IMG/VR virus record: IMGVR_UViG_2880412407_000006
Source: a virus
Taxonomy: Duplodnaviria; Heunggongvirae; Uroviricota; Caudoviricetes
DNA length: 50,384 nt
Reading direction: 5' to 3' (one strand)
The position numbers are program-made. Shown here piece by piece: positions 30,001 to 33,000 of the stretch. Numbering within the stretch: position 1 is the stretch's first letter; every line of letters starts with the position of its first letter.

Positions 30001-33000
30001 AGTCCATATCACCCCGGGTATTATTTATGACGATTTGCGCAAGGGCGAGGATATCGGCATGGTCAAATCAGACCGTCCCAATCCCAACCTTGAAACTTTC
30101 CGCAACGGCCAGTTGCGTGCAGTGGCAGCGGGCAGTCGTCTGAGTTTTTCCAGTGCGGCGCGTAACTATAACGGCACCTACAGTGCCCAGCGGCAGGAGC
30201 TGGTCGAGTCCACGGATGGTTACCTGATCCTGCAGGACTGTTTTATTGGCGCGGTAACCCGTCCGGTGTACCGGACATGGCTGAATATGGTGGTTGCGGC
30301 AGGTCTGCTGAAAATTCCGGCGGATGTGGAGATGAAAACGCTATATAACGCGACGTATTCCGGTCCGGTGATGCCGTGGATCGACCCGGTTAAGGAAGCT
30401 GAAGCCTGGAGAATTCAGATCCGGGGTGGTGCAGCGACAGAATCTGACTGGGTGCGTGCCGGCGGGCGCAATCCGGATGAGGTCAAACGTCGCCGCAAGG
30501 CTGAAATTGATGAAAACAGCAGACTGGGGCTGGTCTTTGATACTGACCCCGTCAACGACAAAGGAGGCAACAGTGCCGGAACTGAACGACAGTATCAGCG
30601 CGACACCGAAAGCCAGCATGAAGAATAAATCCTGGTTCAGGATGCAGGCTGGGGGGCCGGGTGACGCGGATATTTATATTTATGACGAGATTGGTTTCTG
30701 GGGAGTTACCGCGAAGCAGTTTGTCAGCGAACTGAATGCACTGGGTGATATCACCCACATTAATCTCCATATCAATTCACCGGGTGGCGATGTCTTTGAA
30801 GGCATCGCCATTTTTAATGCCCTGAAAAATCAGGGGGCGACCATTACCGTGTATGTGGATGGCGTTGCCGCCTCGATGGCATCTGTGATTGCGATGGCCG
30901 GTGATACGGTCATTATGCCGGAAAATGCCTTCATGATGATCCATAAGCCATGGGGATTCAGTGGCGGGGATGCTGAGGATATGCGCAGTTATGCCGATTT
31001 GCTGGATAAAGTCGAATCGGTACTGTTGCCAGCCTATGCGCAGAAAACCGGAAAAACCACCGATGAAATTGCCGCCATGCTGGCGGATGAAACCTGGATG
31101 TCCGGTGCCGAATGTCTGGCACACGGATTTGCTGACCAGGTGACACCCGCTGTTGAGGCAATGGCATGTATTCAGTCAAAACGTACAGAGGAATTTAAAA
31201 AGATGCCGGAATCCATCCGAAACATGATTACTCCGCCACGCAACAGTGCCCCGCGTGATACCACAGTGACAATCCCTGCACCGGCGGTAACAGAACCATC
31301 ACCGGTACCGGCAGTGTCTGATGAGGCGACCATTCGCGCCCGCGTTATGGCAGAACAGAAAGCCCGCATGTCAGGCATTAACGATCTGTTTGCCATGTTC
31401 GGCGGTCGCTATCAGACGCTTCAGGCACAGTGCGTGGCTGATCCTGACTGTTCGCTGGAAATGGCCCGTGAACGACTGCTGAATGAAATGGGCAAGGAGT
31501 CCTCGCCGACCAACAAAAATACACCGGCCCATATTTATGCCGGAAACGGCAATTTTGTGGGGGACGGGATCCGCCAGGCGATGCTGGCCCGTGCCGGATT
31601 TGAAAATGTCGAGAAGGATAACGCCTATAACGGGATGACCCTGCGTGAATGGGCTCGCATGTCACTGACGGAGCGCGGTATTGGGGTGGCCAGTTATAAC
31701 CCCATGCAGATGGTCGGGCTGGCGCTGACGCACAGCACCTCTGATTTTGGCAATATTCTGCTGGATGTGTCGAACAAGGGGCTGATCCAGGGCTGGGAGG
31801 AATCAGAAGAAACCTTCCAGAAGTGGACCCGTAAGGGACGCCTGTCAGACTTCAAAACAGCGTATCGCGTGGGGATGGGCGGTTTTGGTTCTCTGCGCCA
31901 GGTTCGTGAGGGGGCGGAGTATAAATACATCACCACCTCAGATCGCAAGGAGACCATTGCACTGGCCACTTACGGGGAGATTTTCTCCATCACCCGCCAG
32001 GCCATTATCAATGATGATCTGAATATGCTGGTGGACGTGCCGATGAAGATGGGGCGTGCGGCGAAGGCAACGATTGGTGACCTGGTCTACAAGGTGCTGA
32101 CGGATAACCCGAAACTGTCCGACGGTAAGGCGCTGTTCCATGCCGATCACAAAAATATTGCCACCGGGGGGATCTCCGTTTCCGGACTGGATGCGGCCCG
32201 TCAGATGATGCGCCTGCAGAAAGAAGGCGATCGTGCCCTGAATATCCGTCCGGCCTTTATGCTGGTACCGGTGGCACTGGAGACGGTGGCGAACCAGACC
32301 ATCAAATCGGCCAGTGTGAAAGGGGCGGATGCAAACGCCGGTGTCATTAACCCTATCCAGAACTTTGCTGAGGTGATTGCAGAAGCGCGTCTTGATGCGG
32401 CAGACCCGAAAACCTGGTATCTGGCGGCGGCACAGGGCACTGACACCATTGAAGTGGCCTGGCTGGATGGTGTGGACACGCCATACATTGATCAGCAGGA
32501 AGGTTTCACCACTGACGGCATTGCCACAAAAATCCGTATTGATGCCGGAGTGGCACCACTTGACTGGCGCGGGCTGGTGCGTTCGTCGGTGGCCTGATAA
32601 CCGCGTTATCACAATCACTGCCCGAAAGGGCTTTTTTTATGCCTGAAAAACAGCCCCACAGGGGCTGTCCGGAGAAACAGCATTATGGCGAAAAATTTTG
32701 TACAGGACGGTACCACCATTGAACTGGTGAATGCCGGAGATCAGACCATCCTGAGCGGTGCTGCGGTGCTGCGGTGGTGGTCGGCAGTATGGTGGCCGTG
32801 GCCATTACCGATATTCCTGCCGGTGAGGCCGGTGACGGTTTTGCCGAAGGCGTGTTCCTTCTGCCCAAACAGTCTGCTGACGACATTCAGTCCGGCGCGG
32901 TGGTTTATCTGAAGGACGGGGTTGTGCAGCTGGCTGCAGAGGGTGCGGTGGCCGCGGGGGTAGCCTGGGAAAATGCTCCTGCAAACAGCGCCACTGTGGC

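Follow-up and report, generated by a model that had tools for sequence, protein, structure and literature searches.

A ClpP-like prohead protease/major capsid protein fusion gene in a Gifsy-2-type prophage of the Escherichia coli O121:H19 lineage

The DNA studied here is a stretch of 50,384 nucleotides (IMG/VR record IMGVR_UViG_2880412407_000006, Caudoviricetes), hereafter called the window, which is a prophage of the Shiga toxin-producing Escherichia coli (STEC) O121:H19 lineage. Our subject is its head-shell gene, a single open reading frame (ORF) in which a ClpP-like prohead protease, a linker with a scaffold-like region and a major capsid protein (MCP) are joined in one polypeptide, together with the decoration gene that follows it.

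The fusion gene and its domains

The fusion gene begins within the final codons of the portal gene (Table 1) and is a stop-free frame of 659 codons on the plus strand, running from ATG 30618 to a stop codon at 32595-32597; the earliest start that the frame permits is GTG 30426. An initial annotation, made from the sequence alone, had described a single 659-residue protease-capsid ORF at 30618-32597. This ORF is indeed present at these positions, and curated models span its full length. The model NF045540 (scaf_prot_MCP1), named 'ClpP-like prohead protease/major capsid protein fusion protein', matched with 1004.1 bits over profile positions 2-651 of 652 (its curated cutoff is 475 bits), and PHROG 133 matched over positions 5-667 of 668. 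Moreover, the protein is identical at 659/659 residues to RefSeq WP_000792357.1 from E. coli 2014C-3599, which carries the same name as the NF045540 model; the probable GTG start considered below is the only difference between the window gene and these entries. Domain annotation with hidden Markov models, which had been proposed as a check, placed CLP_protease in the N-terminal part and Phage_capsid_4 in the C-terminal part of the protein.

Table 1. Positions of the head-region features in the window, and identities of window proteins to their lambda counterparts
Feature	Position	Strand	Basis
Portal gene (lambda family), adjoining upstream and overlapping the start of the fusion gene	29126..30628	+	PF05136, E 2.8e-80
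Probable true start of the fusion gene: Shine-Dalgarno AAGGAGG 30561-30567 and GTG 30573, 15 added codons (674 aa), overlapping the portal 3' end	30561..30617	+	
ClpP-like prohead protease/scaffold-like region/major capsid protein fusion gene, 659 aa	30618..32597	+	ORF, NF045540, PHROG 133, identity to WP_000792357.1, Gifsy-2 orthology
ClpP/S14-like serine protease domain, aa 31-176	30708..31145	+	PF00574, NF045542, alignment to ClpP chain 6hwm_A
Pro-rich linker of variable length, aa 181-238	31158..31331	+	Pro content, AlphaFold2, homologue alignment
Central, mostly helical scaffold-like (delta-domain-like) region, aa 239-364	31332..31709	+	AlphaFold2 helices, FP_Epona homology
Major capsid protein domain, aa 365-656	31710..32585	+	PF25209, PF10124, profile matches to solved capsid chains
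Terminator-like hairpin GCCC-GAAA-GGGC followed by T7, directly 3' of the capsid gene	32620..32638	+	Sequence and fold
Head decoration (cement) gene, DUF2190/Phage_cement_2, inactivated	32685..33019	+	PHROG 122 and PF09956 matches split across two frames
Large terminase			BLASTP, 24% identity to lambda counterpart, E 1e-16
Portal			BLASTP, 21% identity to lambda counterpart, E 2e-6
U			BLASTP, 55% identity to lambda counterpart
V			BLASTP, 79% identity to lambda counterpart
G			BLASTP, 43% identity to lambda counterpart
T			BLASTP, 69% identity to lambda counterpart

The N-terminal part had been predicted to be ClpP/S14-like, and Pfam, solved ClpP structures and the positions of the catalytic motifs all bear this out. 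The Pfam family CLP_protease (PF00574) matched with an E value of 1.7e-36, and NF045542 ('head maturation protease, ClpP-related') gave 224 bits against a cutoff of 120 bits. In a single-sequence search of solved structures, the region from residue ~17 to ~180 aligned with ClpP chains, the best being 6hwm_A (E 2.8e-18). Ser86 (in GVAASM; 30873-30875) falls over the ClpP serine motif and His109 (in MIHKP; 30942-30944) over the histidine motif. These two residues, as well as Asp157 and Glu158, are invariant in 28/28 homologues, every one of which is at least 76% identical. As judged by these alignments, the catalytic serine and histidine are intact. The Pfam search returned no match to PF04586 (Peptidase_S78) in the fusion protein.

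With regard to the region behind the protease, the expected Pro-rich linker between the protease and capsid parts is confirmed by its composition: residues 195-238, which correspond to the linker originally proposed at 31200-31330, contain 20.5% Pro compared with 4.1% in the whole protein, and the Pro content across residues 181-238 is 15-20%. AlphaFold2 (AF2) assigned a predicted local distance difference test (pLDDT) score of 26-32 and no secondary structure at residues ~202-235. Among homologues the linker differs in length by whole codons only, which is how a genuine flexible linker behaves in such alignments. The linker is followed by AF2 helices at residues 236-259, 266-274 and 280-290 (pLDDT 69-78) and by further helices predicted at low confidence. 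The protein is tripartite, with a scaffold-like central region that the initial annotation overlooked.

The description of the C-terminal domain as capsid-like agrees with both Pfam and profile searches. Phage_capsid_4 (PF25209) covers residues 365-656 (E 8.6e-56), and a weaker match to Mu-like_gpT (PF10124, E 6.4e-10) lies inside this span. When a profile of the C-terminal two-thirds was compared with solved structures, it reached the chains 8rkc and 8rkx ('Bacteriophage Mu GpT domain-containing protein') with an E value of 1e-8 and 9jod ('Major capsid protein') with 3e-7. The single-sequence search of solved structures returned ClpP chains only, for the N-terminal domain; capsid chains were reached only with the profile. 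The HK97 fold of the capsid domain is a prediction from sequence homology.

The protein is probably longer than annotated. The GTG at 30573 is preceded, at a spacing of 5 nt, by a perfect Shine-Dalgarno (SD) sequence whose predicted duplex has an energy of -11.6 kcal/mol, as compared with -0.1 kcal/mol for ATG 30618, which practically lacks an SD. Translation from this GTG yields an N-terminus beginning MPEL, and the annotated start of the Gifsy-2 homologue yields MPEV. Because of the strong SD and the Gifsy-2-like MPE N-terminus, GTG 30573 appears to be the probable start, giving a true protein of 674 aa. The GTG is used in many gene calls (674 aa), which are found in a cluster (P0001) of 3481 members. 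The Prokaryotic Genome Annotation Pipeline (PGAP) does not use the upstream GTG, and the RefSeq protein comprises 659 aa counted from ATG 30618.

Conservation of the fusion and its relatives

To follow the gene in other genomes we used the DNA of window positions 30400-33100, i.e. the gene with its flanks, as query against 5426 complete E. coli genomes. Matches were obtained in 2069 of them, and in 1989 a single place covered at least 80% of the query. In 74 phage genome records, tblastn recovered at least 80% of the fusion protein in a single frame; these include mEp460, mEp213, mEp043, cdtI, LLS, Ayreon, Tritos, Salmonella Fels-1 and Gifsy-2, and Providencia PSTCR8lys, as well as about 30 Pseudomonas F10-type phages at 58% identity. 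In a six-way alignment of genes that are 58-78% identical to the window gene, among them those of Gifsy-2, Fels-1, F10, PSTCR8lys and mEp460, the frame is unbroken in every one.

The closest studied system is Gifsy-2. Its protein STM1034.3n (YP_001700678.1) is 62% identical to the window protein across window residues 3-658, and its parts likewise run from a ClpP-like protease through a linker/central region to a capsid domain. It differs in being 696 aa long as annotated, with a longer N-terminal extension, and in several indels that keep the frame and fall within the linker or where the scaffold and capsid parts meet. The order of genes also matches: TerS, TerL, a small gene (~70 aa), portal, fusion, decoration, PF13856 ('Gifsy-2' family), Z, U, V, G, T and H. 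Directly 3' of its capsid gene, Gifsy-2 encodes a decoration protein (107/108 aa) that shares 54% identity with the product of the window gene in its intact form; the decoration gene is intact in Gifsy-2, whereas that of the window is frameshifted. The 2010 paper on Gifsy-2 reportedly describes a ClpP-type protease, a central domain of ~200 residues with a possible scaffolding role and a C-terminal capsid protein, as well as T=7 capsids that are said to have been modelled with HK97 gp5 and lambda gpD. As judged from sequence and gene order, the window gene is the orthologue of the Gifsy-2 capsid gene and the module around it a Gifsy-2-type head module. In the words of a citing paper, the Gifsy-2 gene was published as a 'tripartite capsid gene' (Effantin et al. 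2010, Virology 402:355; cited in PMC12315714). Gifsy-2 is also listed with those phages in which a cement protein forms trimers on the 3-fold axes (PMC8538268), whereas HK97 has covalent cross-links in place of a cement protein (PMC8538268).

The Faecalibacterium phage FP_Epona, which has an HK97-type arrangement, is a more distant relative. Residues 43-520 of its 530-aa MCP precursor align with window residues 192-656 (28% identity, E 7e-41), and a Phage_cement_2 gene follows the capsid gene in both. The FP_Epona protease, however, is a separate upstream gene of the S78 family (PF04586) and is neither ClpP-like nor fused. On the strength of the precursor alignment, the central region of the window protein is the counterpart of the N-terminal, delta-like scaffold part of an HK97-style precursor, and the window gene resembles a precursor of this kind to whose front a ClpP-type protease is joined. 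A second type of fusion is described by NF045541 (scaf_prot_MCP2), 'prohead protease/major capsid protein fusion protein', which likewise combines protease, scaffold and capsid and whose scaffold and capsid parts are homologous to those of the window protein. Its model is matched by window residues 198-656 only, and the 418 bits obtained fall short of the 525 bits set as its cutoff. Ralstonia phage YO135_4 has a 697-aa ORF of the NF045541 type that is 33% identical by tblastn across window residues 189-653, but the N-terminal part of this fusion has no ClpP match.

In comparison with lambda, the head genes do the same job and lie at the corresponding point of the late operon, flanked by the portal and tail genes, and both phages possess a serine protease of ClpP/SppA type, a scaffold and a trimeric cement protein. 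The differences are that lambda uses four genes, C, Nu3 (annotated as nested in frame with C), D and E, that its decoration gene precedes the capsid gene, and that its C protein is annotated as an S49 and not an S14 peptidase. BLASTP gave identities to lambda of 43-79% for the window proteins Z, U, V, G and T (Table 1). With the same program the fusion protein had no match of E value below 1 to lambda C, Nu3 or E, nor had the decoration protein one to lambda D, and Pfam reported no lambda-specific capsid or decoration families. These results uphold the earlier proposal that the head module and the lambda-like tail module come from different lineages. Terminase and portal are still distant members of the lambda families, a point that had been missed, and the segment close to lambda starts at Z.

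Assembly of the head and alternative explanations

We consider it highly probable that a Gifsy-2-type lambdoid prophage here encodes its head-shell module as a single gene, with protease, linker/scaffold and HK97-fold capsid in one polypeptide that matures in the manner of Gifsy-2, HK97 and lambda. The domain content, the intact catalytic Ser and His, the conservation of the fusion, the orthology with Gifsy-2 and the synteny are established by the present analysis. By analogy, the precursor would co-assemble on the portal to form a T=7 procapsid whose interior holds the protease and scaffold parts, after which the protease would cut away itself and the scaffold region. The remaining capsid domain of ~300 residues would then expand during DNA packaging, and trimers of the downstream DUF2190/Phage_cement_2 decoration protein would cement the shell. 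The linker together with the helical central region would be equivalent to the delta domain of HK97-type capsid precursors. Cleavage would probably occur in the region bracketed by the indel-rich residues ~296-304 and the start of capsid homology at residue ~365, as suggested by the homologue alignment and the Pfam match.

Certain observations weigh against this interpretation. The acidic member of the catalytic triad aligns as Glu158 instead of Asp, with Asp157 adjacent; the residue facing Glu158 is Asp171 of E. coli ClpP. The full-length AF2 model, built from a 28-sequence alignment, has a mean pLDDT of 40 and a predicted template modelling score (pTM) of 0.30, and pLDDT is below 50 across residues 293-659 because the alignment is shallow. 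It should also be underlined that assembly, self-cleavage, the cleavage site and the T number are all taken over from Gifsy-2, HK97 and lambda.

The alternative that survives best, although we regard it as unlikely, is that the gene is a decaying, non-functional remnant whose ORF has stayed intact by chance in a defective prophage. It draws on insertion sequence (IS) elements, since IS3-family transposase genes lie within the prophage and the copy of the fusion gene in VT1-Sakai is split by IS629, and on the state of the neighbouring decoration gene. The disrupted DUF2190-like gene that had been noted downstream of the fusion is indeed broken, into ORFs 32685-32912 and 32774-33019, with its PHROG 122 and PF09956 matches lying in two frames. 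The split is due to an 8-bp tandem duplication of GCGGTGCT (32755-32762 and 32763-32770), as seen by comparison with the intact 108-aa copies of E. coli 2014C-3599 and VT1-Sakai. We compared 734 homologous places in 516 complete E. coli genomes, and not one of them carried the duplication. In addition, window positions 26000-50384 aligned with E. coli O121 GTVSS-020 at 100.0% identity over a subject stretch that is 8 bases shorter, a shortfall that fits the size of the duplication. By these comparisons the frameshift is private to the window sequence and therefore recent, which speaks against long decay, as does the finding that the fusion protein is 100% identical to copies in many genomes, with its catalytic and strongly conserved positions all intact. 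By analogy with lambda D, the lesion should compromise head stability, and this prophage copy probably cannot make stable full heads although its capsid gene is intact.

Because VT1-Sakai has an IS629 close by, we also considered whether the 8-bp insertion might be the footprint of an excised IS629. This was rejected, given that the IS629 of VT1-Sakai sits in the capsid gene and not in the decoration gene and that the insertion is a plain tandem duplication of GCGGTGCT. In VT1-Sakai the two halves of the split fusion gene (3243-6511 of that phage) are annotated as if unrelated, namely as 'scaffolding protein' (H0022) and 'hypothetical protein' (H0019).

A second alternative, which we judge improbable, concerns how the main shell subunit is made: translation from an internal start at Met196 (ATG 31203) would produce, as the main subunit, a protein of linker, scaffold and capsid parts without the protease, with the full-length product as a minor one. 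In all seven of the fusions examined (7/7), among them the Ralstonia fusion without a ClpP match, an ATG lies in frame where protease and linker meet, and GAGGA or a close variant (e.g. CAGGAG) is found 8-11 nt 5' of this ATG, with duplex energies of -6.0 to -8.8 kcal/mol (31185-31205 in the window). Lambda C and Nu3, as mentioned, are annotated as nested in-frame genes; the arrangement would resemble this pair or herpesvirus UL26/UL26.5. However, the GAGGA arises from the conserved Glu-Glu codons of a peptide motif, R.EE...MP, and need not be a ribosome-binding site; about 20% of the in-frame positions in the fusion gene score -6 or better, and the spacing between SD and ATG is long in the ClpP-type genes. 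Moreover, the residue of FP_Epona aligned to Met196 is Leu, the true start lying 42 residues upstream, and we found no annotation or published report of an internal start at Met196. This site may be a vestigial or functional start, or only part of a conserved peptide motif. Were it used, translation would set how many protease-bearing subunits the procapsid contains relative to plain ones, as for lambda C/Nu3 and herpesvirus UL26/UL26.5.

The last alternative, that an indel error in the linker has artificially joined separate protease and scaffold-capsid genes, can draw on the unfused layout of FP_Epona (a separate protease gene followed by the MCP precursor) and on the fact that most of the 1629 matching phage records align to the protease third of the query only, but its probability is negligible and it is for practical purposes refuted by the sequence comparisons, namely the residue-for-residue identical protein in an independently assembled complete genome, the 1989 E. 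coli genomes and 74 phage records described above, the unbroken frames and whole-codon linker indels of the homologues, and the two models, NF045540 and PHROG 133, that span the entire protein. The ORF first described is in this sense genuine and its frameshift-artefact explanation excluded.

Prophage context and consequences for annotation

Two hairpins are found in the interval between the capsid and decoration genes (32620-32667 holds both). The first is terminator-like (Table 1) and the second has the sequence CAGCCCC-ACA-GGGGCTG. The mEp460 record has a rho-independent terminator annotated between the capsid and decoration genes, soon after the capsid stop. A consensus terminator scan did not report the GCCC-GAAA-GGGC-T7 hairpin of the window, and the fold of the capsid-decoration intergenic sequence was not significantly more stable than that of shuffled sequences (z = -1.8). 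A terminator between these two genes would lie inside the late operon.

At the left end of the prophage, a tyrosine integrase gene (1-1179, minus strand) is immediately followed by one of the IS3-family transposase genes (1242-2132, minus strand); the second is located at 15269-16135. Relatives match window positions 1-25000 at 95% coverage but in 2-3 pieces, and the IS content may therefore differ between strains. A gene for a 365-aa 'Beta protein' (PF14350) at 13618-14715 on the minus strand is adjacent to an IS and overlaps the stretch of lowest GC content (GC 0.345, 14001-15000). The prophage may thus carry an island of accessory or defence cargo here. At 21028-22974, upstream of the lysis genes, lies a gene whose 648-aa product combines DUF1737, DUF6645 and a SASA esterase domain and which we take to resemble the NanS-p esterase genes of Stx phages. 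The stretch of ~850 bp that immediately precedes this gene contains no ORF of at least 120 aa; stx genes were not searched for.

As a discovery the fusion gene is of little importance, for it is of a type already known, which is curated, very common in Gifsy-2-like lambdoid prophages and experimentally studied in Gifsy-2, and DNA matching its region is present in more than one third of complete E. coli genomes. Its value lies in annotation. Records label the same gene variously as 'Clp protease', 'head-tail preconnector protein Nu3', 'protease C', 'scaffolding protein', 'terminase protein', 'head maturation protease' and 'major capsid protein', and these inconsistent labels make many genomes appear to be without a capsid gene. 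Recognising the fusion avoids this apparent absence of the major capsid protein. With regard to the prophage itself, the frameshifted decoration gene suggests a defect in head stabilisation, which matters for whether induction could release infectious phage from it.

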